Part shown: piece by piece, positions 8,430 through 30,118 of the stretch
How positions within the stretch are numbered: position 1 is the stretch's first letter
How the letters are laid out: every line of letters starts with the position of its first letter
NCBI GenBank assembly: GCA_002421785.1
Contig: DIRZ01000001.1
Span: 1 to 32,000 of the forward strand
Length of the DNA: 32,000 nt
Direction: 5' to 3'
From: Candidatus Saccharimonadota bacterium
Lineage (GTDB): Bacteria; Patescibacteriota; Saccharimonadia; Saccharimonadales; Saccharimonadaceae
The notes under the pieces: generated by a model
Databases searched by the model: none
What the model saw: the letters and a program-made list of their open reading frames with translations, nothing else
Told to the model about the DNA's origin: nothing
Position numbers and translations under genes: made by a program

Positions 8430-8798
8430 ATGGGAAGAGTTTTCTACAAAGCAGCAGCCATACTCGTACTCGCATTATTAAATGTGATGTCGTTAGGGAT
8501 GCATGCGGCAGCGGCCCTTCCGGTAAGCGCCAGGCATCCACAGAACACCCCTCATCATGCGGCGCCCGCTAGCTGTTCCGTATTATACTCAGTTGCACCT
8601 ACCGATGAAGTGGCTATTAAAGTGACAGATGAAGACGAGGATGACGAGCCCCAACCTCCGTATCATGCTCGAATCCAGAATTCCCCTCTCTTGGCGCTTC
8701 TTATTCGACATAATCAAGAGGCGCGATTTGCCAGCGCTCGAAATCCGCCGCCTAACAGCACACCCGCCTACATCAAACTGGCAGTATTCCGCACCTGA
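8430..8798 (+). CDS. Small secreted protein, paralogue of 18461..18823 (unknown family)
   Basis: It has a signal peptide (AAAILVLALLNVMSLGMHAAAA). With the 120-aa protein it shares His...Cys, an acidic-Pro core (EDEDDEPQPP..Y vs NEDKDEPTPPEAPY) and a hydrophobic C-terminus (YIKLAVFRT vs VILTVNLRI). Confidence 0.6.
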   Translation: MGRVFYKAAAILVLALLNVMSLGMHAAAALPVSARHPQNTPHHAAPASCSVLYSVAPTDEVAIKVTDEDEDDEPQPPYHARIQNSPLLALLIRHNQEARFASARNPPPNSTPAYIKLAVFRT

Positions 8799-8844
8799 AA
8801 TTCGCTATTTTCGATAACGGTAAATAGTTTATTAAGGAGTGGGT

Positions 8845-9498
8845 ATGAATAATAAGAACAAACGGGTACTTATCGTATCAGTAGTTGCAACATTACTCAT
8901 TGTAGGAGTTGCGGTTTTCGTGCTACGCGACTGGTTATTTAGAGGGGTATCAGAACAGTTCGTACGCGAAACGACGCAGGTAGATCGGTCTTCCGACACC
9001 TACAAGCAGTACGCGTTGATGACAGGTGAGATGTACGATCGTATGTTTATCGCCAATATGATTACCCATCACCAAGGCGCAGTCGATATGGCAAAGATGG
9101 CGCTTGAGAATGCCAAACACCAAGAGCTAAAAGACCTGGCAGAGGCCATTATTCTAGCCCAAGAGAAAGAAATTACAAGCATGACGGCATGGCAAAAAAA
9201 GTGGGGCTATCCATCCACCGAGGGTGATACTATGATGGATCATAGCTCGATGGGCATGATGCACAGCATGGACAGTATGAATGCCGAGCTTGCGGGTAGG
9301 ACGGGCGATACTTTCGACAAAGCATTCCTCGAACAGATGATTACACATCACCAATCTGCTATCGATATGGCCGCCCCCGGTGAAAAGAACGCCGAACACC
9401 AAGAGCTAAAAGATCTAACCAACGTTATTGTCACCAATCAAACAAAAGAAATTCAGCAAATGAAGAAATGGCAAAAGGAATGGGGGTATAAGAACTAA
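8845..9498 (+). CDS. DUF305 family protein (two-repeat, His-His motifs), membrane-anchored or secreted
   Basis: AAGGAG (8834-8839) precedes ATG 8845. The motifs ITHHQGAVDMA and ITHHQSAIDMA are each followed by HQELKDL...W(Q)KKWGY. Confidence 0.85.
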   Translation: MNNKNKRVLIVSVVATLLIVGVAVFVLRDWLFRGVSEQFVRETTQVDRSSDTYKQYALMTGEMYDRMFIANMITHHQGAVDMAKMALENAKHQELKDLAEAIILAQEKEITSMTAWQKKWGYPSTEGDTMMDHSSMGMMHSMDSMNAELAGRTGDTFDKAFLEQMITHHQSAIDMAAPGEKNAEHQELKDLTNVIVTNQTKEIQQMKKWQKEWGYKN

Positions 9499-9579
9499 GC
9501 CCTTGTTATTCGTACAGACAATACGGGTTTAGTACTGTCGTAATGTAACTGTTCGGACTACAGTAGTAAAAGGAGAAAG

Positions 9580-10212
9580 ATGCGGAAGATAGCAATAATG
9601 ATAATCGTCGTAGTGACATTTGGCGGGGTTGTCTCAGGCGTGTGGTTATTGCAAAATCAATCGCCTTCGTCACCTGAGGCGATACCCTCGTTAATTAATG
9701 GTAGTAAAAGGGTAATTAATCCAGATGAGCATAGCTATACTGACATAGATTTTGCACAGAAAATGATTGTTCATGATCAGCAGGGCATCCAGATGGCAGA
9801 TATAGCAACGCGGAACGCAGCGAATGAAGAGGTGCGCATCCTCGCAATGCGTATAAGCGAAGGGTTATCCCGCGACACCGATCAATACGCGAGCTGGTTA
9901 AAAGAATGGGACGAAAAGTATTTTAATCTTTCAGATTTCCCCGAAATGGATGGCCACGATATGTATCCGACTTTTTCCGGTATGGCAAGTTACGAGCAGA
10001 TGAGCGTACTTGCAACCGCATCTGGTAATGAGGCGGCCAAGCTGTTCTTGCAGATGGCTATAGTCCATCATGAGGGAGCTGCTGAAATGGCTAATAGTGT
10101 AGCATTTGAAAGTTTGCAGTTTGGTCAGATGGTCGATTTAAAGGCCAGTACACTTAGGCGACAGGCGGAAGAGATCCAGACGATGAAGCAGCTGCAAGCT
10201 AATATAGAATAA
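9580..10212 (+). CDS. DUF305 family protein (first motif degenerate: VHDQQGIQMA; second VHHEGAAEMA)
   Basis: AAAGGAG lies upstream. It has an N-terminal TM or signal sequence and the DUF305 repeat architecture. Confidence 0.8.
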   Translation: MRKIAIMIIVVVTFGGVVSGVWLLQNQSPSSPEAIPSLINGSKRVINPDEHSYTDIDFAQKMIVHDQQGIQMADIATRNAANEEVRILAMRISEGLSRDTDQYASWLKEWDEKYFNLSDFPEMDGHDMYPTFSGMASYEQMSVLATASGNEAAKLFLQMAIVHHEGAAEMANSVAFESLQFGQMVDLKASTLRRQAEEIQTMKQLQANIE

Positions 10213-10222
10213 GAAAGGTCAT

Positions 10223-10870
10223 ATGAAGAATAAGATCTTAATTACAATCATGGTCGTGCTTGCACTGGCGGCAAGTGTTATTTGGTATCTAGTAGCGACG
10301 CCCGACCAACAGCAGGTTGAGACAGCGCAGCTTGGCACGCCCTCCGCGACAAAACAAGAACCAGCCGTAAACAATAGTACATACGCTAGCTTAGAGGGAG
10401 ACGCACTTGATGAGGCGTACATTGCAGATATGCTTGCTCATCACGAGGCAGCGCTCAACATGGCGGAGCAGGCTCAAGCGGTAACGGCGCATAACGAGAT
10501 TCGCACGCTCGCAGGCAATATCATTCAGACCCAAAGCCAAGAGATGATGAACATGCGGACATGGCAAGTAGAATGGGGCTACGAAGCCACCACTAGTGGT
10601 GGACATATGAGTCACGGGGGCGGTGGTGCCGATATGGCCGGCGACATGGTCGAAATGCAGAATAAATTGCGAGATTTGACAGGAGAAGCTTACGATAAGG
10701 AGTTCTTGATACAGATGATTATCCACCATGAGCAGGCCGTTGAAATGTCGCGCTACGTAGCGACCAAGGCGCTACATCCAGAGCTCAAAGACCTTGCAAG
10801 CGCAGTTATAAGCGCCCAAACAGCAGAAATAAACCAGATGAAGCAGTGGCAAAAAGATTGGGGATATTAA
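10223..10870 (+). CDS. DUF305 family protein
   Basis: The motifs are LAHHEAALNMA and IHHEQAVEMS, with ...WQVEWGY and WQKDWGY. It has an N-terminal signal or anchor. Confidence 0.85.
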   Translation: MKNKILITIMVVLALAASVIWYLVATPDQQQVETAQLGTPSATKQEPAVNNSTYASLEGDALDEAYIADMLAHHEAALNMAEQAQAVTAHNEIRTLAGNIIQTQSQEMMNMRTWQVEWGYEATTSGGHMSHGGGGADMAGDMVEMQNKLRDLTGEAYDKEFLIQMIIHHEQAVEMSRYVATKALHPELKDLASAVISAQTAEINQMKQWQKDWGY

Positions 10871-11502
10871 GCCTTACCATCTCTTGCGGATGACTTCTCG
10901 AAATCTCGGACAACCTGAAATACAAGGCACGGTACCAAAACGATACCTAGTAGCCACCACCATAATGCAAAATAACCAATTTCCATACTAGTTCCTACGA
11001 CAAGGCCATGTATGAATATCGCAACCATGGCGATAGCTTGTGACACGCCGATATATGGCCACACACCGCGGGCAGTGAGCTGACGTCGAAAACGTCGGAA
11101 AACAGGGTAAAGCAAGAATGTCGCAAGTGCGGCCATCGCAAGTGCTATTGCCCAAGCACGAAGCGGCCCGACATAGCTCACATAGCTTTCCGGAGGAAGT
11201 AGCCCCGTGTCAAGAAAGCGCTGCGTGAGAAAAATACCAGGGTGTAGTATGATAAGCGAAAGGACAACTCGCCCCGTCCATCGAGAGAATCGTGCGTTAC
11301 TTCTCGCGCCGAATCTCACAGTAGTCGCTGTGACGCATTGCACCCACATCGTCACCCACGCAAGAATGCCGAGAATTGGGAAAAACTGATACAATGAACT
11401 AATTTCGCTCGATGATGTCAGCAGCCAGAGGGAAATACTGATGGCATAGACACCCCCGAGTAAAACCCAGTGCGAGTAATGTTTTGTGAAGTATTGTGCC
11501 AT
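10867..11502 (-). CDS. Six-TM integral membrane protein with His in TM3 and TM5 (ferric-reductase/MsrQ-like, putative heme b protein)
   Basis: There are six hydrophobic helices. Conserved-looking His residues occur in LIILHPGIF and IFIHGLVVG. Its stop overlaps the convergent DUF305 stop by 4 nt. The family assignment is tentative. Confidence 0.6.
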   Translation of the reverse strand: MAQYFTKHYSHWVLLGGVYAISISLWLLTSSSEISSLYQFFPILGILAWVTMWVQCVTATTVRFGARSNARFSRWTGRVVLSLIILHPGIFLTQRFLDTGLLPPESYVSYVGPLRAWAIALAMAALATFLLYPVFRRFRRQLTARGVWPYIGVSQAIAMVAIFIHGLVVGTSMEIGYFALWWWLLGIVLVPCLVFQVVRDFEKSSARDGKA

Positions 11503-11509
11503 ATGACTA

Positions 11510-11515
11510 ATTATA
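11510..11515 (-). promoter_or_regulatory. TATAAT (minus strand) 7 nt upstream of ATG 11502 (leaderless candidate)
   Basis: The minus strand reads cggTATAATtagtcatATG. There is no SD. Confidence 0.35.
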
Positions 11516-11537
11516 CCGAAGAAAGGAGTATAACGTT

Positions 11538-11936
11538 ATGAATAGGAAAACAGTCGCATTATTAGCAACCATCTTAATACTGAGCATAGCTATAGTAATT
11601 GGGGTCAGTGCCGGATTAAATCGTCAAGACCAAGAAACCACCCAGCAGGATGCACCGCAACCAACAAAGACGTTCACCGCAGAGGAAGTTGCCAGTCACA
11701 ACTCAAAGAACGACTGCTGGACAATCATATCCGGCCAAGTATACGATCTGACCGAGTACATAAATCGCCACCCCGGGAGTGATGAGATTCTTCGTGCCTG
11801 CGGAGCCGAGGCTACTACTCTTTTCGATGCCAGGCAGACGACAGATGGTAAGCCTGTCGGTTCCGGTGCGCCACATAGCCAAGCGGCTCGCGAGCAACTA
11901 GACCGACTTAAGATCGGGACACTAATAACTAATTAG
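11538..11936 (+). CDS. Membrane-anchored cytochrome b5-like heme-binding domain protein
   Basis: AAAGGAG lies upstream. The N-terminal anchor is VALLATILILSIAIVIGVSAG. The domain signature is FTAEEVASHNSKNDCWTIISGQVYDLTEYINRHPGS...TLFD...APHS. Confidence 0.85.
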   Translation: MNRKTVALLATILILSIAIVIGVSAGLNRQDQETTQQDAPQPTKTFTAEEVASHNSKNDCWTIISGQVYDLTEYINRHPGSDEILRACGAEATTLFDARQTTDGKPVGSGAPHSQAAREQLDRLKIGTLITN

Positions 11937-12567: not shown

Positions 12568-12715
12568 GCCTATCATTGTCGACCTCAATAAAGACCCTGA
12601 TATTCTACAAAAACTTACCCAAGTCATTAAGAGCTCATAGGCATCTAGTCTAATTCCACTTATATAGTCTGAGCAAACTTCTCATTTTACGGGCAAGGTT
12701 ACTTCAGCTAACTTA

Positions 12716-12743
12716 CCAAACCACGTCAGGAGCCGTGGTTTGG
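12716..12743 (-). terminator. Hairpin downstream of copA
   Basis: CCAAACCACG and CGTGGTTTGG form a perfect 10-bp stem 47 nt past the copA stop. The U-tract is weak. Confidence 0.45.
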
Positions 12744-12789
12744 TAATAATATATACGGCTAAGAGCACTAGGATCTAGCCTATCTCAAG

Positions 12790-15700
12790 CTAATCAGCAA
12801 CTACGAAACTCGCGTCGATAAAGTGCATAGTATCTAATGCGGTGTCAGTTTTTGGCAACGTATATACAATCGCATTGTTTCCAAAGAAGCCCTTGATGGT
12901 GTCGCCATCTTTCTTAAAAAGTTTGGCCTCTTTCATCATTTCGGCTTCGTTGCTACCGATATAAACAGGGTAATAGGTGCTGTTACCAATTTTCGCCGAC
13001 GATGTCGACTCAATCTTACCAGCCAGCTTTTCTGGTGTAGCGTTTTGGGTGAAGTAAAACAGCTTCGTGCTGCCATTCTCCTCTGCAACAACCTGCAAAC
13101 GAGCGGCCGTATTCAACTCAGCAAATACGCTAGGTGACAAGAAGTGGTATGAGTCAGCAAGTGTCCCAGTTGGCTTCAGTATACCGACCACTGTCACATT
13201 TTTTGCGCCAAAAAAGCTCGACAATACATCACCAACGTTCTTAAATAGCCCCTCTTCTTGCATCATTTTTGCTTCATCACTGCCAATAACCACGCCTCGA
13301 TTAGACATATCAGCGGAGCCACTACCTATGGCAAAATCGGCTGGCAATGTATTCACAGCGGCAAACAACTTTGGTGTACCGCCGTCAGCAAAAGCTACGG
13401 CATTATCTACACTAGCAAAGGTTTTGTTGATCAATTTGACACTCTCTTGAGAAACAAGGACGCCCCCCGCCATAGCTGTCTGCGATTCCATTTGAGAGCT
13501 AAGTTTAGCGAACGATACGAACAAACCGATAAATAACACGCCAATCGCGATAGGAGTTACCGTTGATACCCAGTTACGTTTTCCGGGGCGATAGCCGCGA
13601 AGCGTCAGCGAGTTTGTCACAACAGAGATTGAACTGAGCGCCATCGCAAGGCCAGCAAGTTCTGGCCGCAGTACCAACCCAGCAAACGCGAAGACGCGTG
13701 CTGCGATAGGTATACCGGCCACGTTATAAAACAAAGCAAAGAACATGTTTTGACGTATTTTACTGACAGTAGCTTTAGAAATGCGGATTGCTTCAACCAC
13801 ATCGCGCATATCGTTCTTAATGATAACGATACCGCCCGTTTCCATGGCAACATCTGTTCCACTGCCCATCGCAATACCCAGATCTGCCTGAGCGAGAGCT
13901 GGCGCGTCATTGATGCCGTCTCCAACCATGGCGACAACTTTACCCGAATCTTGGATGCGCTGAACATTCGAAGCCTTGTCTTCAGGTAACACTTCTGCAA
14001 GAACATTTGTAATGCCAACCTGAGCAGCAATCGCTCGGGCGGTTCGTTCATTGTCGCCAGTAATCATCCACGTTTCAATGCCACGTGCATGCAGTGCGTC
14101 AATTGCTTCTTTAGATGTAGCCTTTACGGTATCGGCGACGGCAATAACTCCAACGATTTCGGTTTCAGTCGATAAAATCATCGCGGTCTTACCACCAGCT
14201 TCTAGGCGCTCAATCTTCTTTTCGAGTCGCTCTAGTTGTATGCCGAGTTTTTCAACAATCAACCGACGGTTTCCAAAGTAATATACCCTGCCATCGACAC
14301 TCGCCTTAACGCCATGCCCTGGAATCGCTTCAAAGCCATTAATTTCTTGCAGCTTCACACCCTCTTCGTCGGCATAATGATAGATCGCCTCCGCAAGTGG
14401 GTGTTCGCTCTCACGCTCAATACTCGCTGCGATTTGCAGAACGTCATCTTCGTCATATGCTCCAAGGGCAACGATGTCGGTAACTTCAGGCTTGCCGTTG
14501 GTAAGCGTCCCTGTTTTATCAAATACGATTGCATTGACTTTACAGGCGATTTCTAATGGCTCGCCACCTTTAATAAGAATTCCGTGTTCAGCCGCTTTAC
14601 CAGTTCCTACCATCAGTGCGGTCGGTGTCGCGAGACCAAGCGCGCATGGGCAGGCGATCACGATAACGGCCGTAAAGGCCATTACAGAGAAGGCTAAGCC
14701 CGCTCCTAAGATAAAGAACCAGACGAGGAATGTAATGAACGCTATCCCAATAACCGCTGGTACGAACCATGAAGAAATTCTGTCGGCGAAAGCCTGAATA
14801 GGTGCTTTCGATCCTTGGGCGTTTTCGATAAGACGGATAATTTGAGACAGTGTCGTTTCGCTACCGACGCGCGTGGCGGTGAATTCAAAACTGCCCGTCT
14901 TATTGATAGTTGCTCCGACGACAGTAGCTCCGACGGTCTTTTCTACCGGCAAGCTTTCGCCGGTGATCATAGACTCGTCAAGCGCGGATGATCCTTTGCT
15001 TATCACACCGTCGACAGGAACCTTTTCACCAGGCCGAACTAAGATAGTATCGCCATTGGCGACCTGTTCGATCGGGATGTCTAATGTTTCGTCACCGCGT
15101 ATAACACGTGCTGTTTTCGCCTGGAGGCCCATCAGTTTTTTAATGGCATCTGAGGTTTTATTTTTTGCCCGTGCTTCAAGCCACTTACCTAAGATCACGA
15201 AGGTAATCAAGAAAGCAGCGGTCTCAAAGTAGAGTTCTGGAATTTTTAAACCATTCAGCCCAATTAACGACTGGTTTGAGATAGCAAATATCAGATAGTA
15301 CACGATGCTATACAGGAACGCCGTAGACGTACCAATAGCTATCAAGCTATCCATATTGAACGTTTTCATCTTCATACCCGACCACATGCCCTTATAGAAG
15401 CCTGCTCCGATAATGAATTGGACAGGAAGCGTGAGTATCAATGACACAATACCGAAGTACGGCGGAAGTATCTTACCGCCTGGCATGAATGGGAAAAAGT
15501 CGAGTAGCATAAAGTACAGCATAGGCAAGCTGAGTCCAAGGCTGACGAGGAACCTGTTACGCAAGCTAGTAATTGCTTTAGCTCGATTAGCTTTCTCATT
15601 CACTTCGGCTTCTTCATTATCAAGCGCCTCTGCGCGGTAACCAGCCCGCTTCACTGCCTTTAGCAGATCAGTCGTCTCCACGTTACCGTTCGTATTAACA

Positions 15701-16392
15701 AGCGCCTTCTCTGCAGAAAAGTTTACATTGGCCTTCTCGACACCCGGCACTTTTGAGAGTTGTTTTTCGATTAACCCAGCACACGAAGAACAATGCATGC
15801 CATAAATTGCAAGACGCGTCGTCGCAGCTTGTTTGCTAGATACCATCTCAGCATCATTGTTGCGTACAGGAGACGCGATGCTCTCAGTCTTGTTTTTGGG
15901 AACAAACACAGATGACAATGCCTGCACGATACTGGTTGCGGTCACTGCTTGGTTGGCAGATGCATAATCATTTATATTATGATCTTTTCCGTCAACAGTA
16001 ATCGACTTCGTGTCGCTCATTGTACCAGTAAAGGTCGGTCGGCCATTTGCATCGATACTTACGCTACCGTCGGCTACGGTCTGAAGCTCGACTCGAACGT
16101 GCTGCACCATACTAGGACTGTCAGTTTCTTTAGCATTTTTGGCTGTCTTGATAACGGCCTTTTCCTTGTCAGTCCCATCGACAAAGGTTGCATCGTATCC
16201 AGCAGATTTTACAGCAGTCAGTATCTCTTGTTCGCCTACTGCTTCCGTATCGAATGTGACCGTTCCACCTTTCTTGGGTTCGGATATTTCAAAGTCCTTA
16301 ATCCCTGGCAAGTCTTCAAACTCCGAGCCAATAAGTTTTTCGCAGGAGCTACAATGCATACCTGGAATTGATAGTTCGATTGTTTTGATCAT
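12790..16392 (-). CDS. copA: Copper-translocating P1B-type ATPase (CopA-like) with two N-terminal HMA domains and an unusual C-terminal extension
   Basis: The diagnostic motifs are GMHCSSC (twice), [16 protein letters not shown] (CPC), FDKTGTLT and [10 protein letters not shown]. After the normal end there is an extra TM helix and 231 further residues. Confidence 0.95.
12793..13485 (-). other. C-terminal extension of CopA (residues 970-1200) with two tandem ~60-aa repeats (13114..13296 and 12793..12969)
   Basis: The two repeats are [58 protein letters not shown] and [56 protein letters not shown]. The pattern is reminiscent of FtsX/MacB/LolCE extracytoplasmic domains. Confidence 0.55.
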
Positions 16393-16601
16393 CGTTTTTC
16401 CTCGGCGCGGTAATCACTGTCTGCAAGTACCGCATTAATCTCGTTAGTGGTGATTGGCCGTGCGGCATGTACAAGCGCTATCTTTGTTTCAAGATCGACA
16501 GAGGCGTCAAGTACGCCTTCAATCTTTTTGATACGTTTAGCAGATAATTTCGTACAAGCCTCACAATGCATGCCGTTTATAGTAAATGTCTGGTCGCTCA
16601 T
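16389..16601 (-). CDS. copZ: CopZ-like copper chaperone (single HMA domain)
   Basis: It contains GMHCEAC in a 70-aa ferredoxin-like HMA domain. GGAGGA lies upstream. Its stop overlaps the copA start (ATGA). Confidence 0.9.
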
Positions 16602-16614
16602 AGTTCCTCCTTCA

Positions 16615-18057
16615 TTATGTCGTTACCGTTATAGACCCACGTGGAATACCCATAGCACAGGCAATGGTGTACGTGCCGGGCTTGGTAGCGGTAAATGTTA
16701 GCTCTAACTTTTTACCCTTACGCAAGTACTGCGGTGTGTCATCAAGTCCAATGATCATGATCGTACTCATACACCCCGAACCATTATCTTGAACGTCAAC
16801 AACGAGCGTCGTCTTTTGTCCAACTTTTGCGGTAAATGTGCTTGGCACAATATCGGACTTCAATTTATATGTGGTGTTAAGGATGACCGATCCTTCTGAT
16901 GAAGCGGCCTTTTTAGACGTCGACGCAGATGTGGTTTTTGGTATCAGATCGTCCAAAGACAGTTTGATACCAGCAAGGTTGAAGCCGTTCGAGAAATTAA
17001 GCAAGGCCATCGCTATGACAACGACACCGACTATTCGGAAGAACCGTTGCGCAAACGCACCCTTGACTACCGAAGTGAGGCCGCCCAGGCTTAAAAGTCC
17101 AGGTGCAGTACCGATTGCAAATGCACCCATAATTATCGCAGCCTCAATCGGGTTACCGGTGCTTACAGCAAGAAGCTGCATCGCTTGCGTGAAACCGCAC
17201 GGTAAAAAGAATGTTGCCGCGCCCATCATGAACGCATTTTTATGACTGTATTCTCGCTCCTTACGCGAGGAGATGCCAAGTCTTTTTGCAATGCCACTTG
17301 GTAGCGTTAGGCCCTTAGTAATCCGCGGGAACAGCTCCGTTAACTGCAACCCGAGCACGAGCATGACGGCCCCAACCGCAATCGTTAGAAAACCAAGCAA
17401 CGTCCCCTTGAGGGCAAACGCCGACCCAATCGCTCCTATGACTGCCCCTAGCACGATAAACGATAGTATTCGTCCAAGGTTAAAGAATAGGTGCGGTTTA
17501 AATTTTTCAAATGGCGTTTGTGTTGGATGGTTTTCTGCGTACTTTGACGCGACACTGAGTACTAATCCGCCGATTAGCGCCATGCACGTTGAGAATCCAG
17601 CGGTCAAACCAATAATCAGCGCCATGGCTCCATTACTACCACCGCCACTCGTGGCTGAAGAGAGTATTTTATCCAGTCCTAAGACCTGAAATAGAAAGAC
17701 CAGCCCAGTAACGACAAAGAGGCCTATAAGGAAGTCTTTCCATATACGCTCGTTTCGGGTGAGCAGTGGCTTCTTTCCATCTTCCTCCCCGACTTCATAC
17801 CCCGCAGCCTCGACTGCATTTACGATTTGATCGTAATCGATCTTACTATTACTGGCAATCGTCGCAGAGTTAGTCTTCAGGCTTGCAGTTGCAGAGGTTA
17901 CGCCGGGGATTGATTCTAATTCGCTCGCAATTAACAGTTCACAAGAGGCACAGTGCATGCCTTTTATAGGGACTGTCCGTTCTTGAGCACGAGCTGTTTC
18001 ATTATCGTTTGGGTGTTGCATGTTTCGGTCCTTTCGGGATTTCTTATTTTTTGTCAT
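16615..18057 (-). CDS. HMA domain / 7-TM DsbD_2 (TauE-SafE-like) membrane domain / C-terminal cupredoxin-like domain protein
   Basis: The HMA domain contains IKGMHCASC. The membrane core carries the FSTCMA and FFLPCGFTQAMQ motifs. The C-terminus (TFTAKVGQKTTLVV...GTYTIACAMGIPRGSITV) resembles Cupredoxin_1. The listed ORF starts at TTG 18075; I prefer ATG 18057, with ATG 18021 as an alternative. Confidence 0.8.
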   Translation of the reverse strand: MTKNKKSRKDRNMQHPNDNETARAQERTVPIKGMHCASCELLIASELESIPGVTSATASLKTNSATIASNSKIDYDQIVNAVEAAGYEVGEEDGKKPLLTRNERIWKDFLIGLFVVTGLVFLFQVLGLDKILSSATSGGGSNGAMALIIGLTAGFSTCMALIGGLVLSVASKYAENHPTQTPFEKFKPHLFFNLGRILSFIVLGAVIGAIGSAFALKGTLLGFLTIAVGAVMLVLGLQLTELFPRITKGLTLPSGIAKRLGISSRKEREYSHKNAFMMGAATFFLPCGFTQAMQLLAVSTGNPIEAAIIMGAFAIGTAPGLLSLGGLTSVVKGAFAQRFFRIVGVVVIAMALLNFSNGFNLAGIKLSLDDLIPKTTSASTSKKAASSEGSVILNTTYKLKSDIVPSTFTAKVGQKTTLVVDVQDNGSGCMSTIMIIGLDDTPQYLRKGKKLELTFTATKPGTYTIACAMGIPRGSITVTT

Positions 18058-18211
18058 GGCTTGCTCCCATTCCAACCATCATTAACACCATCATGATGAT
18101 GCAAAAAAGCGGGGCTAGTACGAATAGGTACTTTGTATCGGTAAAGTAGGTGATGGCAAGCATCGCGACTACGCCGATAATCATCCATAGCATGTGCTTC
18201 TTGTGGTTCAT
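18044..18211 (-). CDS. Small two-TM protein, DUF2933-like (55 aa; below the ORF-track cutoff)
   Basis: Manual translation gives MNHKKHMLWMIIGVVAMLAITYFTDTKYLFVLAPLFCIIMMVLMMVGMGASHDKK. It starts 3 nt after the YHS gene stop and overlaps the next gene by 14 nt. The His-rich ends and Met-rich helix resemble DUF2933 proteins of metal-resistance operons. Confidence 0.6.
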   Translation of the reverse strand: MNHKKHMLWMIIGVVAMLAITYFTDTKYLFVLAPLFCIIMMVLMMVGMGASHDKK

Positions 18212-18214
18212 GGT

Positions 18215-18415
18215 CTATGCCTCATCCCAAACATAGCGCTCAGGATAGTCATCAAAGTGCTTTTGACATGGACTTGAGCAAAAATAGTACGTGCTCCCGC
18301 GATATTCACTCCGGTGCTTGCACTTTTCCTCGATTATATCCATCCCGCACACCACGTCGACGTTGGCGTGTTTACTAGTCGTATCAAAGACAGTGTCGTC
18401 TTGTAAAAATTCCAT
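18215..18415 (-). CDS. YHS (TRASH-type) domain protein
   Basis: It contains VVCGMDIIEEKCKHRSEYRGSTYYFCSSPCQKHFDDYPERY. AAGGAG lies upstream. Confidence 0.85.
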   Translation of the reverse strand: MEFLQDDTVFDTTSKHANVDVVCGMDIIEEKCKHRSEYRGSTYYFCSSPCQKHFDDYPERYVWDEA

Positions 18416-18460
18416 ATTAAACTCCTTTGTTCTATTAGATAACTAACAAAGAAGGATGGC

Positions 18461-18823
18461 TTAAATTCTGAGATTGACCGTCAGTATGACTATATCTGGC
18501 GGGACGAAAGACGATGACTCTATAAGATTAACCTTGGGCTTTTCGGGGTCAACTGGCGTTTTTAGGAAGGCCACAAAATACGGGGCCTCTGGTGGAGTCG
18601 GTTCATCCTTGTCTTCGTTTTCAAGTTGCTTAGTGTCCTTATTGATCGGAGCCGTAGGAGTTTGGTGGCGTTCTAAGCAGTTAGCGATATCTACCTTTGC
18701 ATGTCCCATGTCATCCATGGTCTGCGTGGCCGAAACAGTAGTTGCTGAAAAGGTGGGCGCCAAAAGGCTAGCGACAACTGCGCTCGAGAGGAGGATTCGT
18801 TTAATTATCAGTGATATATTCAT
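18461..18823 (-). CDS. Small secreted protein, paralogue of 8430..8798 and first gene of the minus-strand copper operon
   Basis: It has a signal peptide (ILLSSAVVASLLAPTFSA). The shared motifs are described at 8430..8798. AGGAA lies 10 nt upstream of the ATG. Confidence 0.7.
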   Translation of the reverse strand: MNISLIIKRILLSSAVVASLLAPTFSATTVSATQTMDDMGHAKVDIANCLERHQTPTAPINKDTKQLENEDKDEPTPPEAPYFVAFLKTPVDPEKPKVNLIESSSFVPPDIVILTVNLRI

Positions 18824-18911
18824 GAATCTATGTTCCTGCAGATAATATACAGCATAGAGAAGATATATTCAATAGTACGCATGTATTAATTTATTATGCT
18901 ATACTATTTAC
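18824..18911. promoter_or_regulatory. AT-rich divergent promoter region, including the extended -10 TGcTATACT (18897-18905) 6 nt upstream of ATG 18912
   Basis: This 88-nt spacer lies between the divergent copper operons. The plus-strand gene lacks an SD and is a leaderless candidate. The minus strand has TATATT upstream of the 120-aa gene. I found no convincing operator palindrome. Confidence 0.45.
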
Positions 18912-19385
18912 ATGAGCTCAGAACTGTTATCAATAGAGGAAGAAGTCTTCAAAGTACTCGCCAACCAAAAGCGGCTTGAGATTATATTGCTGCTCGAAAA
19001 CCGCGAGCTGAACGTCACTCAGATGGCGCAGATGCTCGGCTTGCGCCAGTCTAACCTTTCCCAACACCTTACCCTGCTGCGACAGCAAAAACTTGTTTCG
19101 GTGCGCAAAAATGGCCGTGAATCATATTATAAGCTCACCGACCAATCAATCGCAAAGGCTATCCGGACGATTCATGAAGTATTGCGCACCCAACACAGGA
19201 TAATGCTGCCACTCGATAGTAAGTCACTATTCCCGATTGTCACAGACCCAGTTTGCGGCATGCGCTTCAGTGCATCGCGGTCGATAGAGCATTTAACTGA
19301 CAGTGAGGGCGTGACTCATTATTTTTGCGCATCAGGCTGCAAACAGATGTATGAAATGACTAACCTCTCACCAGTGAATACATAG
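18912..19385 (+). CDS. ArsR/SmtB-family metalloregulator fused to a C-terminal YHS/TRASH domain
   Basis: The winged helix-turn-helix is LANQKRLEIILLL...NVTQMAQMLGLRQSNLSQHLTLLRQQKLV. The C-terminal domain is DPVCGMRFSA...THYFCASGCKQMYE. Confidence 0.9.
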   Translation: MSSELLSIEEEVFKVLANQKRLEIILLLENRELNVTQMAQMLGLRQSNLSQHLTLLRQQKLVSVRKNGRESYYKLTDQSIAKAIRTIHEVLRTQHRIMLPLDSKSLFPIVTDPVCGMRFSASRSIEHLTDSEGVTHYFCASGCKQMYEMTNLSPVNT

Positions 19386-19395
19386 GGAATAAATA

Positions 19396-21396
19396 ATGCA
19401 CCAGCACGACCATACTCAATACGGCGAACATACAAATCATAACAAGCACCAAGGGCATAGCCCCGGTCTTTTCAGGCGCAAGTTTTGGGTTGCGCTTACG
19501 TTGACAATCCCGACATTACTTTTTTCACCTGCAGTCCAGCAATGGATCAACATCAACTGGTCATTTAACGGCAGCGATTATATACCCGCAGTTCTCGGAA
19601 CAGCTATATTTATATACGGTGGGATTATTTTTCTAAAAGGTGCCTGGACTGAGCTAGCAATAAAACGTCCGGGCATGATGACTCTTATCTCCATGGCGAT
19701 AAGCGTGGCATTTGCCTATAGTGTGGCAGTGACATTCCGGCTGGTTGATGGAATGGATTTCTGGTGGGAGCTGGCGACATTGGTCACCATTATGCTCCTT
19801 GGGCACTGGTTAGAAATGGCCTCTGTTCAAAATGCACAAGGCGCTCTTGGGGAACTCGCCAAGCTTTTGCCTGATGAGGCTGAGGTGATTCATGGCGATG
19901 AAATTATGAAGATGCCAGTAGGCGAATTGGCTATCGGCAATCTCGTACTAGTCAGGCCCGGCTCGCAAGTTCCGGTTGATGGAGAAATTATTAAAGGTAA
20001 ATCTGATATTAATGAATCCATGCTCACCGGTGAATCAAACCCAGTCACAAAAAACATTGGCGCAGCGGTGATTGGCGGGACTATAAACGGTAGCGGCGCA
20101 CTGACGGTTAAGGTATTGAAAATAGGTTCAGATACGACACTTGCTGGAATTATGAAGCTAGTCACCGATGCGCAGGCTAGCAAATCAAGCACGCAAATCC
20201 TTGCCGATAAAGCAGCTGGCTACCTAACCTATCTTGCACTAGCTGCGGCGCTCACCACCTGGCTCGTGTGGTGGGCTGTTGGGGCAGAACCGGCATACAT
20301 ATTAGAGCGCGTCGTCACCGTGCTTGTCGTAGCTTGCCCTCATGCACTTGGCCTCGCGGTTCCGCTCGTTACTGCCATATCTACCACGCTTGCAGCAAAA
20401 AACGGCCTATTGGTTCGACAGCGCATGGCGCTCGAATCAGCTCGTAACATCGACGTAGTATTATTTGACAAGACAGGTACGCTTACCCAGGGAAAGCAGG
20501 GCGTTGCAGATGTGTTCGCTACTGATACTGCTCGAGTCCTAAGTATCGCTGCCGCACTTGAGCACGACTCTGAACATCCCATTGCCCGAGCTATCGTTGA
20601 GTATGTATCGAATCAAAGTCTGCCAAGCATTCCGGTTACAGATTTTTCCGCACTATCTGGCCGTGGTGTCCGCGGCAAAATCAATGATACATTTGTGTAT
20701 GCGGGAGGACCTCGGATACTAGAAGAGTTAAGTGCGATAGTTCCCACTGACATACAGTCGGCCGCTGACGTCGCCTCTGCTGATGGCAAAACTGTCATTT
20801 ATATTATCGAGGACACGAAAGCAATCGGAGCAATCATGCTGACAGACATTATCCGGGACGAATCCCGAGAAGCAGTTGCAACGCTACAATCGATGAACAA
20901 ACGCGTCGCGATGTTGACCGGTGATAACGAAGGCGTAGCAAAATGGGTAGCAAATGAATTAGGAATTACAGAATATTTTGCCAATGTCCTACCTGAGAAT
21001 AAAGCAGCTACAGTCAAACAACTCCAGCAAGATGGAAGCACGGTCGCAATGGTAGGAGATGGCGTCAATGACGCGCCCGCGCTGGTACAGGCAGACGTTG
21101 GCATAGCAATTGGGGCCGGTACGGATGTTGCCATTGAGTCCGCTGGAATTGTGCTGATGAGTAGTGATCCTCGCGGTGTTGCAAAAACGGTCAAACTGTC
21201 TAGATCTACGTATCGAAAAATGCTCCAGAACCTCGCATGGGCAACTGGCTACAATGTTGTCGCCATACCCCTAGCGGCAGGCGTTGCCTCTGGGCTCGGC
21301 GTTATATTATCGCCTGCCGTCGGAGCAATCCTTATGTCGCTATCGACCATTATCGTCGCTGTCAACGCCCAGCTGTTACGTAGTAGGCGGCTGTAA
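19396..21396 (+). CDS. copB: CopB-type (P1B-3-like) copper ATPase with a His-rich N-terminus and CPH motif
   Basis: The N-terminus is MHQHDHTQYGEHTNHNKHQGH. The diagnostic motifs are LTGES, VVACPHALGLAVP (CPH), FDKTGTLT and GDGVNDAPAL. There is no HMA domain. Confidence 0.9.
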   Translation: MHQHDHTQYGEHTNHNKHQGHSPGLFRRKFWVALTLTIPTLLFSPAVQQWININWSFNGSDYIPAVLGTAIFIYGGIIFLKGAWTELAIKRPGMMTLISMAISVAFAYSVAVTFRLVDGMDFWWELATLVTIMLLGHWLEMASVQNAQGALGELAKLLPDEAEVIHGDEIMKMPVGELAIGNLVLVRPGSQVPVDGEIIKGKSDINESMLTGESNPVTKNIGAAVIGGTINGSGALTVKVLKIGSDTTLAGIMKLVTDAQASKSSTQILADKAAGYLTYLALAAALTTWLVWWAVGAEPAYILERVVTVLVVACPHALGLAVPLVTAISTTLAAKNGLLVRQRMALESARNIDVVLFDKTGTLTQGKQGVADVFATDTARVLSIAAALEHDSEHPIARAIVEYVSNQSLPSIPVTDFSALSGRGVRGKINDTFVYAGGPRILEELSAIVPTDIQSAADVASADGKTVIYIIEDTKAIGAIMLTDIIRDESREAVATLQSMNKRVAMLTGDNEGVAKWVANELGITEYFANVLPENKAATVKQLQQDGSTVAMVGDGVNDAPALVQADVGIAIGAGTDVAIESAGIVLMSSDPRGVAKTVKLSRSTYRKMLQNLAWATGYNVVAIPLAAGVASGLGVILSPAVGAILMSLSTIIVAVNAQLLRSRRL

Positions 21397-21437: not shown

Positions 21438-22067
21438 ATGAAAAAAATATTCATCACCATAGCCATCACAGTAAGTCTAATGATACTAACTGGTATTGCC
21501 ATATCGTCCAGCAATACTCGGAATTCAAGCAACTCTGTAGCCGAACCGGTTACGAATAGTGGCACTACGAACAGTATGTATGCAAACATATCGGGTGATG
21601 AATTCGACAAAGCATATTTATCTGACATGATCGCACATCATCAGGGCGCCCTAAACATGGCAAGCTACGCACGCACAGAAACAACCAGCGGCCGCATCAA
21701 AGCACTTTGCGAAAGTATTTTGGCATCCCAAACCACCGAAGTCCAACAAATGCTCGCATGGCAAAAAGAGTGGGGGTATATTGATGGCTCAGACCCTCAT
21801 GCTGGCCATGCAATGGAAGCGGGTGGTGGCATGAGCGCTGACATGGCGAGTATGGAAGCGCGACTCTACGACACGACAGGGACTGCGTTTGACGAGGAGT
21901 TTTTGAGCGTGATGATACTCCATCACCAACAAGCAGTTGAAATGTCTCGCTACGCCGCAACCAATGCAAAACACCAAGAGCTGAAAAACCTGGCTCAGGA
22001 TGTTATTCGTGAGCAGAATAAAGAAATTGCCGATATGCAACAATGGCAAAAGGAGGCGGGCAACTAA
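21438..22067 (+). CDS. DUF305 family protein
   Basis: The motifs are IAHHQGALNMA and ILHHQQAVEMS, with WQKEWGY. It has an N-terminal anchor or signal sequence. Confidence 0.85.
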   Translation: MKKIFITIAITVSLMILTGIAISSSNTRNSSNSVAEPVTNSGTTNSMYANISGDEFDKAYLSDMIAHHQGALNMASYARTETTSGRIKALCESILASQTTEVQQMLAWQKEWGYIDGSDPHAGHAMEAGGGMSADMASMEARLYDTTGTAFDEEFLSVMILHHQQAVEMSRYAATNAKHQELKNLAQDVIREQNKEIADMQQWQKEAGN

Positions 22068-25947: not shown

Positions 25948-26352
25948 CTAGTGATGAACGATCTTTCGTAATTTCTTCGCTTGGGCAATATATGCTTCGA
26001 GCGTACTAATGCTAGGGACTTTAGTGGCGCCTGTGTTTTGCTCGGCATACGCCAGCAAATCGCGGCGCAAGCTATCGCTGTCGTGGTATGCCAGCTTCGG
26101 AACCGTACAAACTCCCACGGCACAAAGGAGCCCAGCAACCGCCGCGCCCACGCCGTCAATACGCATTAAGTCTGCCTGGTGCACCCATTTTTTCACCAGT
26201 TCATCGGTAAGCCTGGCTTCATCGGCAAGCCGCATTCTCCCAGTTGATGTTGCCCCCGCCTCAAGTAATTGGCTAGTTGTACGCACGCCTGCTTCCGCCA
26301 AAGCCTCTGCCTGCGCTTCACTTATTCCGTAAATATCTTTGACGCTTGCCAT
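25948..26352 (-). CDS. DUF4332-like (tandem helix-hairpin-helix) protein
   Basis: GGAGGA lies upstream of ATG 26352. The repeats are I.GISEAQAEALAEAGVRT..QLL and ADLMRIDGVGAAVAGLLCAVGVCTVPKLA. The maximal ORF start at 26454 is rejected. Confidence 0.55.
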   Translation of the reverse strand: MASVKDIYGISEAQAEALAEAGVRTTSQLLEAGATSTGRMRLADEARLTDELVKKWVHQADLMRIDGVGAAVAGLLCAVGVCTVPKLAYHDSDSLRRDLLAYAEQNTGATKVPSISTLEAYIAQAKKLRKIVHH

Positions 26353-26482
26353 AGGGTCCTCCACGCTTGCCTCAAACCATTGTATGGTTGTCATTATACA
26401 CCCCGCCGCGCATTTTGCCTGTGAATTAGATTGCCATAAGAGTATTTTACCCATAAGCGTTATGAGGTATACTAGGCGTAGT

Positions 26483-28885
26483 ATGAATAATCACGAAAAA
26501 CACTCGATGGGCCAGTACTTGCGTGCTGTCAACTATTTGACCGCAGCACAAATCTTTTTAGCAGACAATCACACGATGAAACGCGGCATCACGTTCGATG
26601 ATGTAAAGTCGCGCCTACTCGGCCACTGGGGCAGCGGACCCGGCATCAACTTTGCCTACGCGCACCTTAGCCGCTACGCCAAAAAGTATGACCAAGACAT
26701 GATGTTCGTGCTCGGGCCGGGCCACGGCTTCCCAGCGCTTCAGGCGAACCTGTTCCTTGAAGGCACGCTGACTCATTTTGATCCATCATTGCAGCTCAAC
26801 CTCGACGGAGTCGCGCGACTTTGCCGTCAATTTAGTTGGCCCTACGGCTACCCAAGCCACTCCAACCCAGAAACGCCAGGCGTTATCTTGGAAGGCGGTG
26901 AACTTGGCTACGCGCTGAGCACAAGTTATGGCGCCATCATGGACAACCCTAACCTTGTTGTGGCTTGCCTAGTCGGTGATGGCGAGGCAGAGACCGGACC
27001 AACCGCAGGTGCATGGCACCTCAACAAACTGGTTAATCCACGTAAGGACGGCGTCGTACTACCAATCCTTCACCTCAATGGCTACAAAATCAGCGCGCCA
27101 ACTATTTTTGGGCGCATGAGTAACTATGAACTAATGACACTCTTTAGCGGCTACGGCTATGAGCCACGGATTGTCGATACAACGTCGAGCACTATGAACG
27201 AGGCGAACGACAAAATGGCAGAAGCCCTCGACTGGGCACACGACTTGATTGAAGAAATCAAACAGAGCACCGATACTGTCGCACAACGTATGCCGATGAT
27301 CATTATGCGAACCCTGAAGGGTTGGACTGGCGTAAAAGAACTGAACGGCGACCGGGTAGAAGGGAACTGCCTTGCGCACCAAGTCGTGCTGAGTGAAGCT
27401 AAGACCGACGAAGCCCAATTGGCGCTCCTCAATGAATGGCTTGGCAACTACAAATTCGGAGAGCTTTTCAGCGAAGAAAATGGCTTCGGTAACTTTATCG
27501 AAGACATCATCCCTGAAAATCCCGCAAAACGCCTTGGCATGAGCAAACACGCGCATGGCGGCGATGCCGTTTACAAACCGCTTAACCTGCCACCCGTTGA
27601 GCAATTCGCAGAAGATGCCGTAGCCCCAGGCACCATGGGCAGTAGCAGCATGCGCCGCACCGGCCTTTACCTTGAAGAAGTATTCCGTCGCAACGCCGAT
27701 AGCAAAAACTTCCGCTTCATGAGCCCGGATGAGACCTACTCCAATAAACTTGATGATATCTTCAAAGCTACCAGCCGAAGTTGGCAATGGCCAATCACCA
27801 GCTGGGACAAAGATCTCAGCCAAGACGGGCGAGTTATGGAAATGCTGAGCGAGCATAACATGCAGGGCCTTATGCAGGGCTATGTACTCACAGGCCGCCA
27901 CGCAATGTTCGCTAGTTACGAAGCGTTCCTACAGGTTGTCAGCAGTATGGTTGACCAGTACGCTAAGTTCCTCACGCAGAGTCGTGGTGTCGAATGGCGC
28001 GGCACAATCCCAAGCATCAACTACATTCTCACCAGCAGTGGTTGGCGCCAGGATCACAACGGCTTCAGCCACCAGAACCCTGGCTTCATCGACGATTTGC
28101 TCCGTCGCCAAAGTAACTTTAGCGACGTCTATTTCCCTGCAGACGGTAACTGCACCCTTGTCGCGCTCGAAAAAATGCTGACCAGCGTCCGCCAAATTAA
28201 CGCGATCGTCGCAGGCAAAACCGTCGAGCCGCGCTGGCTGACCGTCGAAAAAGCGCGTCAGCAAATCGATGCAGGCTTAATGGTGTGGGACTTTGCCAGC
28301 CAGGAAAACCCACACATCGTGATGGCCGCTTGTGGCGACTACCCAACAAAGGAAACAATGGCCGCCATCGATATCATCCGCACCGAGCGCCCCGACGTCC
28401 GCATACGCTGCGTCAATGTAAGCAGCCTCACAACCATGGGCTTCGGTACGCTCAACAATACCGCCGACCAAAAAATGTTTGACCACATATTTACCGAAGA
28501 CAAACCTGTGGTGTTCAACTTCCACGGCTACCCGCAAACGGTCAAGTCGGTCCTGTTTAATTATGCCGTCGACAGTACGCGCTTTGACGTTCGTGGCTAT
28601 AAAGAAATCGGAAGCACGACGACGCCGTTTGACATGCACGTTCGTAACGAAACAAGCCGCTACGACCTCGCTATTGCCGCCTTTAGGCAGCTTGGTCACG
28701 ACGGTGCGATTCCATTCGAAGAAGCCGAGCACTTAGCTGCAAAATACCGCGGAAAGCTCGAAGCAAATACCGCCTACATCAAAGAAAACGGCATCGACTT
28801 ACCTGAGCTTGACGCATGGGTGTGGCCAGATGCACGTGGACTAACTAAAACAGAAGAAGAAGCCTGGCACGGCCAGACAAACTAG
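26483..28885 (+). CDS. xfp: Phosphoketolase (xylulose-5-P/fructose-6-P)
   Basis: The motifs are YLRAVNYLTAAQIFL, GHWGSGPGINF and EGGELGYALS, over about 800 aa. The start is set at ATG 26483, and TATACT lies at 26468-26473. Confidence 0.95.
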   Translation: MNNHEKHSMGQYLRAVNYLTAAQIFLADNHTMKRGITFDDVKSRLLGHWGSGPGINFAYAHLSRYAKKYDQDMMFVLGPGHGFPALQANLFLEGTLTHFDPSLQLNLDGVARLCRQFSWPYGYPSHSNPETPGVILEGGELGYALSTSYGAIMDNPNLVVACLVGDGEAETGPTAGAWHLNKLVNPRKDGVVLPILHLNGYKISAPTIFGRMSNYELMTLFSGYGYEPRIVDTTSSTMNEANDKMAEALDWAHDLIEEIKQSTDTVAQRMPMIIMRTLKGWTGVKELNGDRVEGNCLAHQVVLSEAKTDEAQLALLNEWLGNYKFGELFSEENGFGNFIEDIIPENPAKRLGMSKHAHGGDAVYKPLNLPPVEQFAEDAVAPGTMGSSSMRRTGLYLEEVFRRNADSKNFRFMSPDETYSNKLDDIFKATSRSWQWPITSWDKDLSQDGRVMEMLSEHNMQGLMQGYVLTGRHAMFASYEAFLQVVSSMVDQYAKFLTQSRGVEWRGTIPSINYILTSSGWRQDHNGFSHQNPGFIDDLLRRQSNFSDVYFPADGNCTLVALEKMLTSVRQINAIVAGKTVEPRWLTVEKARQQIDAGLMVWDFASQENPHIVMAACGDYPTKETMAAIDIIRTERPDVRIRCVNVSSLTTMGFGTLNNTADQKMFDHIFTEDKPVVFNFHGYPQTVKSVLFNYAVDSTRFDVRGYKEIGSTTTPFDMHVRNETSRYDLAIAAFRQLGHDGAIPFEEAEHLAAKYRGKLEANTAYIKENGIDLPELDAWVWPDARGLTKTEEEAWHGQTN

Positions 28886-28887
28886 CT

Positions 28888-30090: not shown

Positions 30091-30118
30091 CCATCAACAA
30101 CGTAAACGGAATCATGCA

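Follow-up and report, generated by a model that had tools for sequence, protein, structure and literature searches.

The window analysed here comprises 32,000 nucleotides (nt), positions 1 to 32,000 of contig DIRZ01000001.1 (forward strand, GenBank assembly GCA_002421785.1), from a Candidatus Saccharimonadota bacterium. It contains a six-gene copper operon in which the pump CopA carries a ninth transmembrane (TM) helix and an extension domain, here called Ext. Judging from the sequences, we lean towards the view that this is a Cu(I) efflux operon of an ultra-small, single-membrane Saccharibacteria cell, with copper acceptors tethered at its outer face. A divergently encoded ArsR-TRASH regulator probably controls it, presumably in response to copper. 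Each part taken singly is of a known kind: the pump is a P1B-1 ATPase, the chaperone an HMA protein, the cupredoxin of the CupA type, the membrane protein a member of the DsbD clan and the regulator a TRASH protein. Three features are new to the literature that could be searched: the ninth helix (TM9) and Ext on a copper pump, a predicted outward-facing CupA-type domain, and their conserved association across the candidate phyla radiation (CPR) and DPANN. That literature held nothing specific on this CopA extension, on the function of COG2836/PF13386 or on copper systems in CPR, and no description of the combination as a whole, in line with the preliminary description, which had not recognised it as characterised.

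The operon consists of six tightly spaced genes on the minus strand, running from 18823 to 12790, and all open reading frames and junctions were found as first described. Gene 1 (18461-18823) encodes a secreted orphan protein of 120 amino acids (aa), gene 2 (18215-18415) a 66-aa YHS/TRASH-type protein and gene 3 (18044-18211) a 55-aa peptide with two TM helices. Gene 4 (16615-18057) encodes a 480-aa fusion of an HMA domain, one extra TM helix, a six-TM DsbD_2 core, a linker and a CupA-type cupredoxin, and is followed by gene 5 (16389-16601) for a 70-aa CopZ-type HMA metallochaperone and gene 6 (12790-16392) for the 1200-aa P1B-1 Cu(I) ATPase CopA with TM9 and extension. Genes 1 and 2 are separated by 45 nt containing AAGGAG and genes 2 and 3 by 3 nt; genes 3 and 4 overlap by 14 nt, given the gene 4 ATG at 18057; 13 nt containing GGAGGA precede copZ, and copZ and copA share an ATGA overlap. 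Gene 4 has alternative starts at 18075 (486 aa) and 18021 (468 aa, the gene caller's choice), but the start at 18057, as in the preliminary description, is favoured because the lysine/arginine (K/R)-rich N-terminus is conserved in homologues. The operon is bounded by a conserved promoter-like site and, behind the last gene, by the hairpin noted earlier (12713..12746, minus strand), with a 13-bp stem, an 8-nt loop, no U-tract and an RNAfold free energy of -21.1 kcal/mol. A scan of the whole window against Rfam gave no match.

Pfam and NCBIfam searches, hydropathy and AlphaFold helices support the earlier domain calls for the YHS protein, the HMA, DsbD_2/seven-TM and cupredoxin parts of gene 4, CopZ and CopA. 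Most products had been thought to be extracytoplasmic; our topology predictions reduce this to half (3/6), namely the 120-aa protein, the tail of the gene 4 fusion and the CopA extension, all three with conserved Met/His/Cys residues. The YHS protein and CopZ are predicted to be cytoplasmic, and the 55-aa protein a two-TM hairpin with both ends inside. None of the six products matched the Cus/Pco families (CusF, PcoC/CopC, PcoE) in Pfam or NCBIfam, and the suggested analogy with these periplasmic systems would be one of function, not of sequence homology.

An identical 1200-aa CopA also occurs on a metagenome contig of 200 kb in ENA. CopA itself scored above the cutoffs of TIGR01511 (620.6 bits, cutoff 397) and TIGR01525 (660.7, cutoff 346) and below that of the E. 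coli-type equivalog NF007952 (684.7, cutoff 1316). The signature motifs CPC, YN, MALSS (MxxSS) and DKTGT are present, as are two GMHCSSC motifs in two HMA domains. According to hydropathy and AlphaFold, the eight canonical TM helices are followed by a ninth, and the protein departs from the canonical layout of eight TM helices with both termini in the cytoplasm. Behind M6 lie a basic linker, TM9 (aa 940-968) and a 230-aa tail that includes a domain of 207 aa. TM9 (13489..13575, minus strand; hydropathy peak 2.16, a long helix in the AlphaFold model, conserved in relatives) follows the cytoplasmic linker and is predicted to lead the chain outside. We place Ext outside the membrane because TM9 follows this K/R-rich linker and because stand-alone homologues of Ext have N-in signal anchors. 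Between its HMA domains, CopA also contains an insert of ~100 aa (window 15838-16140, minus strand; aa ~85-185; …TKSITVDG…) without a Pfam match.

Ext (12793..13413, minus strand) is a tandem duplication in which each repeat shows the pattern G..EA.MM..E…GD…FG…D..H; the repeats are 47% identical (E 1e-14). The conserved residues are M1043, M1044, D1080 and H1083 in repeat 1 and M1152, M1153, D1187 and H1190 in repeat 2. Among 76 sequences, M1043, M1044, D1080, H1083, M1153, D1164, D1187 and H1190 were each kept in 76/76 and M1152 in 72/76, with only the repeat-2 counts unbiased, because the repeat-1 motifs belonged to the search pattern. This bias stems from alignment A5, a bacterial subset used for the locus scan in place of alignment A4, which was too diverse; the motifs also recur in homologues from an unbiased HMMER scan.

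The AlphaFold model of the domain is confident, with a predicted local distance difference test score (pLDDT) of about 90. Ext had no Pfam match even at E <= 10, and sequence and profile searches against PDB sequences revealed no credible relative. Its best Foldseek matches in the PDB were all extracytoplasmic domains of the MacB/FtsX type (YtrEF, YbbAP, HrtBA, LolCDE, 3IS6), at weak levels (E about 0.02, probability 0.7-0.9). MacB_PCD was also the sole recurring sub-threshold Pfam match among Ext relatives, found in 3/13 at E <= 1 and remaining under its gathering score (best 24.1 bits, cutoff 27). One could propose that Ext serves structural or mechanical ends instead, as an anchor or gate of the pump in the envelope or as a point of contact with the host cell, with the conserved Met and His residues having a structural role. 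This type VII ABC transporter family (MacB, FtsX, LolCDE, YbbP) provides the only fold and sequence resemblance, including a beta-alpha-beta pattern common to Ext ('vviG..lAkkL…GD…f.vvGvl'), and Ext is restricted to the episymbiotic CPR/DPANN lineages. However, no FtsX domain or four-TM bundle and no ABC ATPase accompany it; Ext is duplicated, sits on a P-type ATPase and has EA.MM in place of LAkkL, so that Met-Met/His replaces the Leu/Lys of the usual MacB-type helix. Furthermore, Cu(I) is typically bound by ligand sets like the invariant Met-Met plus His, as in the Met2His site of CusF (PMC9470648), and in two domains of life Ext shows a strict linkage to CopA, as well as a linkage to copper binders of the CupA-like type. 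A purely structural Ext therefore appears improbable to us.

The distribution of Ext was at first easily underestimated. A word-index protein search with the extension returned only 11 fragments, but this apparent rarity was a sensitivity artefact, as an exhaustive HMMER search and a pattern scan showed. The HMMER profile kept about 95 positions of the ATPase C-terminus, most of its 15,586 matches were plain pumps, and only matches covering profile positions beyond about 100 were used. The exhaustive profile search recovered full-length pumps that bear the extension, together with numerous stand-alone proteins (250-290 aa) whose N-terminus is an equivalent N-in membrane anchor. Scanning the GTDB species representatives yielded 80 loci, distributed over Saccharibacteria, a dozen or more further phyla of the CPR, and DPANN; the closest belong to Candidatus Saccharibacteria. 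Together with eight earlier loci they form our census (loci labelled L), which contains 65 full CopA-Ext fusions and 14 stand-alone Ext genes. Some record titles on CPR-type CopA-Ext loci ('uncultured Gammaproteobacteria', 'Pseudomonadales', 'Bdellovibrionales', 'Methanosarcinales') are unconfirmed and possibly wrong (L018, L023-L025, L029, L030, L032, L037 and others).

An HMA-DsbD_2 gene lies directly upstream on the same strand in 52/58 fusions with enough upstream sequence, one or two CupA-like domains occur on 47/52 of these upstream genes, and a small HMA gene is also present in 41/58 fusion loci. The core trio of HMA–DsbD_2–CupA-like protein, CopZ and CopA–Ext is found in about 50 species-level genomes from many CPR phyla. 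On contigs of Woesearchaeota and other DPANN, a stand-alone Ext adjoins a CopA of normal length (719-741 aa), and these loci also carry a small HMA protein and a stand-alone CupA-like protein. Recognisable in the latter are a K-rich N-terminus, a single TM helix, a stalk of Ser/Thr/Asn, a C-x-M-x-M site and a tail of Gly/Cys. Since the same parts recur fused in CPR and as separate adjacent genes in DPANN, we consider them functionally linked; their repeated fusion and splitting, as far as sequences can tell, argues that they work together.

Within Saccharibacteria, the gene order is kept in L009-L015, where the CopA extension domain is 62-94% identical, and in L002-L007, with a fusion protein 75-81% identical. 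The 120-aa, YHS and 55-aa genes, the ArsR-TRASH regulator and the CopA inter-HMA insert occur only in Saccharibacteria loci. By these comparisons, the six-gene unit is conserved within its lineage and the three-gene core is a widespread module. Conservation of the gene set in relatives, which the preliminary description had proposed to look for, is thus evident, with an order that recurs in dozens of genomes, far beyond chance. This also bears on the simplest account of the region, that of an ordinary copZA operon next to unrelated neighbours, with the long CopA as an assembly or gene-calling artefact. A copZ-copA pair with an ATGA overlap is indeed the standard arrangement, but the 65 independent full-length CopA-Ext fusions, the HMA-DsbD_2-CupA synteny in 52/58 loci, an identical 1200-aa product on three separate contigs and the six-gene order kept among L002-L007 and L009-L015 refute this account, to which we attach practically no weight.

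Several variants were observed in the census. In one relative (L004:9646-12561), a natural deletion variant, CopA has 971 aa and stops just past TM9; its fusion protein shows 68% identity. In many HMA-DsbD_2 proteins of CPR (about 590-640 aa), the CupA-like domain occurs as a tandem pair (L021, L024-L026, L034, L040, L054, L058, L061, L064, L084-L088). The Gly/Cys tail (…GGSCGAGGGGCGCGG) ends archaeal CupA-like proteins (L065, L069, L074, L078, L079) and also a separate secreted protein of 79 aa (L008:5719-5958). At this Woesearchaeota locus, a 301-aa HMA protein whose TM helices are extremely rich in Met (L008:2369-3274), and not DsbD_2, acts as the presumed membrane partner; a different membrane module fills the DsbD_2 slot there.

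The second unusual product is the gene 4 fusion. Its HMA domain (17794..17976, minus strand; GMHCASC; Pfam HMA E 1.2e-12) keeps the CxxC in 53/53 diverse relatives. The six-TM DsbD_2 core (17002..17622, minus strand; Pfam DsbD_2 E 2.6e-34, 119.3 bits, cutoff 24.9) contains the membrane cysteines Cys146 (STCM) and Cys275 (FFLPCGFTQ; numbering of the 468-aa form), likewise kept in 53/53 relatives. Hydropathy and the AlphaFold helices agree on seven TM helices, one extra and six of the core; hydropathy analysis found no signal peptide and a TM1 flanked by K/R-rich sequence. The K/R-rich loops 160-176, 229-259 and 313-320 share a side with the HMA domain, and by the positive-inside rule this domain should lie inside and the C-terminal domain outside. 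The K-rich N-terminus, TM helix and Ser/Thr stalk of the archaeal CupA-like proteins agree with an outside location of the tail. For the fusion as a whole, the AlphaFold model was poor in the membrane part (pLDDT 65) and was used only for the helix count and the cupredoxin domain. Gene 4 has at least 4783 homologues, named 'sulfite exporter TauE/SafE family', some of them in Candidatus Saccharimonas, and HMA plus DsbD_2 proteins (COG2836) were noticed earlier in CsoR copper regulons of gut Firmicutes, where they are uncharacterised (PMC4938975).

The C-terminal domain of gene 4 (16624..16902, minus strand; Pfam Cupredoxin_1 E 1e-7) had been described as a cupredoxin-like tail with Cys and Met but no His in the usual ligand positions. 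The motifs GCMSTIM and CAMG are invariant in homologues. The tail is not an unusual cupredoxin; it corresponds to the known Cu(I)-chaperone type of CupA. In a profile comparison with the PDB, the tail matched CupA (4F2E/2MRY, E 4.3e-8) and the CopA N-domain (4F2F, E 2.5e-4), with Cys74/Cys111/Met113 of CupA aligned to C417/C455/M457. CupA 4F2E was also the best Foldseek match of the model (TM-score 0.80), in which the cupredoxin domain reaches a pLDDT of about 90. Because both profile and best fold match CupA and the ligands align, we assign the tail, by sequence and model, to the CupA-type Cu(I) cupredoxins. Among relatives, C417 is kept in 38/38, C455 in 38/38 and M457 in 37/38. The last Met of the CupA ligand set CxMxM is Ile or Val in Saccharibacteria and Met in archaeal and some CPR copies (CSMGMG, CGMNM).

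With CupA and the CopA N-domain of S. pneumoniae, the tail shares a homologous cupredoxin fold, aligned ligands, membrane tethering and encoding in a cop operon. However, CupA of S. pneumoniae is a single-TM, cytoplasm-facing chaperone paired with the cupredoxin domain of CopA (PMC7558416). Here, the domain is C-terminal on a seven-TM HMA-DsbD_2 protein and predicted to face outward, CopA has HMA domains only, and the second Met of CxMxM, kept in many CPR/DPANN copies, is not kept in Saccharibacteria.

What the DsbD_2 core does could be explained in different ways. The LysE superfamily holds both metal exporters driven by the proton motive force and the DsbD electron carriers (PMC4608589), so that the core might either move Cu(I) or transfer electrons. 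In the latter case, it would act as a transmembrane conduit like DsbD, CcdA or ScsB, keeping the Cys of the outer CupA-like domain reduced or driving reduction of Cu(II) to Cu(I) at the surface, and only CopA would move copper. Several features fit this possibility, including the Pfam placement in the DsbD_2 family (LysE/DsbD clan), the status of DsbD as the superfamily's electron-carrier family (PMC4608589), and exactly two invariant membrane Cys, one per half of the six-TM core, combined with an extracytoplasmic Cys-containing client domain. The bis-thiolate Cys pair of the outer domain needs reduction, CupA reduces Cu(II) in vitro (PMC7558416, PMC5646241), and the Scs thiol oxidoreductase system is tied to copper stress (PMC9470648). 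However, the cytoplasmic partner is an HMA metal binder and not a thioredoxin fold, and a Pfam scan of gene 4 found no thioredoxin-like domain. Conserved Met/Gln residues adjoin both membrane Cys (STCM, QAMQ), a setting reminiscent of a soft-metal site, and when the PDB was searched with sequence and profile, no credible relative of the core emerged and no similarity to the solved CcdA/DsbD chains was detectable. The fused HMA domain and the Cys-Met context favour a metal path, whereas the paired membrane Cys and the oxidation-prone outer thiols favour an electron path; we regard the purely redox role as a minority possibility, though a serious one.

A third role for gene 4 would be uptake or recycling, in which the outer CupA-like domain captures external copper and DsbD_2 passes it inward to HMA, as in MerP-MerT, for sensing, cofactor supply or routing to CopA. 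The layout of HMA, membrane Cys and outer Cys mirrors the thiol relay MerP-MerT-MerA, and the NCBIfam MerTP and MerT/CopZ models match the HMA part of gene 4 weakly. Membrane potential would also favour the entry of cations. Copper has been reported to be routed via the cytoplasm before export to cuproenzymes (PMC9470648). However, gene 4 is part of an efflux operon and directly precedes copZ-copA in about 50 genomes, and uptake would therefore create a futile cycle. CPR genomes, moreover, encode few cuproenzymes. The metal carriers of the LysE superfamily are exporters (PMC4608589). In this genomic context, a MerT/MerP-kind uptake relay is less likely, and we consider it rather remote.

Among the smaller products, the 120-aa protein starts with a signal peptide, and its motifs M-x-x-M(-G-H) and C-x3-H are invariant. 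In the homologue alignment, M36, M39, C49 and H53 are invariant or near-invariant, and the C-terminus SxSFxPPDIVILTxxLRI is strongly conserved. It had no Pfam or NCBIfam match, and only 13 homologues were detectable, none of them annotated; a putative role as extracellular copper binder is plausible. Gene 2 matches Pfam YHS (E 1.1e-14, 54.5 bits, cutoff 30.3), contains the Cys motif CGM…YYFCSSPC, shows no TM segment by hydropathy and is predicted to be a small cytoplasmic metal-binding protein; it is conserved in L002, L005 and L009-L015. The 55-aa protein has a Met-rich second TM helix (CIIMMVLMMVGMG) and a His/Lys tail at its C-terminus, as seen from its reading frame and hydropathy; its gene is present in L005-L007 and L009 and absent from L002, L004 and L010-L015. 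The earlier label 'DUF2933-like' was not upheld for this protein, as PF11666 gave only E 1.7 and 9.2 bits (cutoff 21) and the likeness is compositional only. CopZ matches Pfam HMA (E 1.6e-10), has the motif GMHCEAC and matches NCBIfam models of the CopZ family, all under their cutoffs.

Upstream of gene 1, a consensus scan found a promoter-like site (TTGAAT-17-TATATT; 18844..18872, minus strand), both hexamers of which are conserved in 8 aligned Saccharibacteria intergenic regions. The divergent intergenic region (18824..18911) contains an imperfect palindrome, AGTnnnCATAATA..ATATATGCGnACT, beside the -35 box, and the alignment of orthologous regions shows that it is kept in eight related loci; it is a candidate operator of the ArsR-TRASH regulator. 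This regulator (18912..19385, plus strand) combines an ArsR/SmtB helix-turn-helix (NCBIfam NF033788, 84.2 bits, cutoff 55) with a C-terminal TRASH/YHS-like CGM…FCASGC module that reached Pfam YHS at a sub-threshold level (E 1.3e-3; 19.1 bits, cutoff 30.3), and its position is conserved across all Saccharibacteria loci examined. A divergent helix-turn-helix regulator with a C-terminal TRASH-like sensor and a small TRASH/YHS protein beside CopA are likewise found in the archaeal cop cluster of CopR, CopM/CopT and CopA (PMC7830388). Here, however, the helix-turn-helix is of the ArsR/SmtB and not the Lrp type, and the operon adds CopZ and extracytoplasmic modules.

Co-oriented with the regulator is a second pump (19396..21396, plus strand), a P1B ATPase of the CopB type whose N-terminus is His-rich and which contains a CPH motif; it scored above the cutoffs of TIGR01525/TIGR01511. 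The wider island (~8.4-22.7 kb) contains four DUF305 genes, a secreted cytochrome-b5-like protein (11538-11936) and a polytopic 211-aa membrane protein without Pfam match (10867-11502), with the flanking genes, including DUF305, at window ~8430-11936 and 21438-22067. These flanking genes may belong to a larger copper/redox island, which may be mobile. In relatives, transposase and serine-recombinase genes border the copper island (L002:796-1928 and 14790-17392; L004:16445-17431). Within the window, two bins at the edges of the operon (12-13 kb and 18-19 kb) show a GC content lowered to 0.42-0.43. Further downstream (26339-31513), phosphoketolase, acetate kinase and an Nramp transporter represent an ordinary fermentative Saccharibacteria context.

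For the favoured efflux reading, the following path can be proposed. Cytoplasmic Cu(I) would be bound by CopZ, by the small YHS/TRASH protein and by the HMA domains and fed to CopA, which would pump it outward, with TM9 holding the duplicated Ext at the outer face. The two invariant Met-Met/His/Asp sets of Ext could then take Cu(I) directly at the pump exit. A second holder of Cu(I), with higher affinity, would be the CupA-type Cys2Met cupredoxin that the neighbouring seven-TM protein displays on this face, and the DsbD_2 core of that protein, with two membrane Cys and a cytoplasmic HMA domain, would either move Cu(I), as a LysE-superfamily exporter, or service the outer thiols. The secreted 120-aa Met/His/Cys protein might serve as lineage-specific terminal acceptor. 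A cytoplasm-to-exterior Cu(I) relay had already been suggested, and it gains support from the conserved unit, from the co-occurrence of Ext and cupredoxin through fusion and fission in CPR and DPANN, and from the predicted outside location of the tail, the 120-aa protein and Ext. Beyond this, we infer that Ext and the 120-aa protein bind metal, in which order hand-off proceeds and in which direction DsbD_2 transports.

Several points weigh against this reading. The MacB/FtsX domains, to which Ext has its only fold resemblance, are mechanical rather than metal-binding, and the AlphaFold model of the gene 4 membrane core is poor (pLDDT 65 overall). One relative (L004) is without Ext, the YHS gene and the 55-aa gene, with the rest kept. 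Thiolates on the outside of a monoderm cell are prone to oxidation, and an inside-negative membrane potential disfavours passive Cu+ export through DsbD_2. Finally, CupA in S. pneumoniae acts on the cytoplasmic side (PMC7558416).

The proposed path has counterparts in known systems. The CopA to CusF transfer of E. coli involves a Met2His site, and there the Cu(I) pump exit is met by an extracytoplasmic Met/His acceptor, with no free Cu(I) released (PMC9470648). Acceptance by Ext would resemble this hand-off, except that the acceptor is covalently tethered via TM9, or is a single-pass neighbour gene product in archaea, and is unrelated to CusF in sequence and fold; outer membrane and CusCBA are both lacking here. 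Likewise, the Cys2Met Cu(I) chemistry of CupA is already known (PMC7558416). In S. aureus, another monoderm, the CopB/CopX-CopL system co-encodes the pump with a surface-exposed protein proposed to bind extracellular copper and to block its re-entry (PMC10233261), and the outward CupA-type site and the secreted 120-aa protein may be comparable to CopL in purpose. CopL, however, is a lipoprotein of a different family that is not fused to the pump, and Pfam revealed no CopL homologue here. In outline, the DPANN Ext, a separate single-TM protein with a large outer domain encoded beside the pump, recalls the Na,K-ATPase beta subunit and Cdc50 of P4-ATPases (PMC10654040). There is no homology to these subunits, and the association of Ext with the pump is deduced from gene fusion only.

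Taking these observations further, we tentatively propose that Ext could be a previously unrecognised extracytoplasmic partner of P1B copper pumps, present as a single-pass 'beta-subunit' in DPANN and as a fusion of TM9 and domain in CPR, which would receive Cu(I) at the exit via Met2His-type sites. With outward CupA-type cupredoxins, it would form a dedicated copper relay at the outer face, found specifically in those episymbiont lineages of both domains that are ultra-small and have a single membrane. We see this broader proposal as a working idea, less secure than the efflux reading of the operon.

The exit of Cu(I) from a P1B pump and its recipient have been worked out only for E. coli CopA and CusF, and according to a review the majority of transfers from ATPase to chaperone await characterisation (PMC9470648). 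If the presumed acceptor is covalently joined to the pump, as here, structural work and transfer assays on the exit step would have a convenient object, the more so given its conservation over many CPR phyla and the two-gene version in DPANN archaea. The review of P-type ATPases cited above describes no accessory subunit for P1B pumps (PMC10654040). If the proposal is true, Ext would be the first extracytoplasmic domain or accessory subunit proposed for the P1B copper-pump class, and the CupA cupredoxin, so far regarded as a cytoplasmic protein of a few streptococci, would be relocated to the surface of cells that make up much of microbial diversity. For the biology of CPR and DPANN, this points to copper handling at the host-contact surface.

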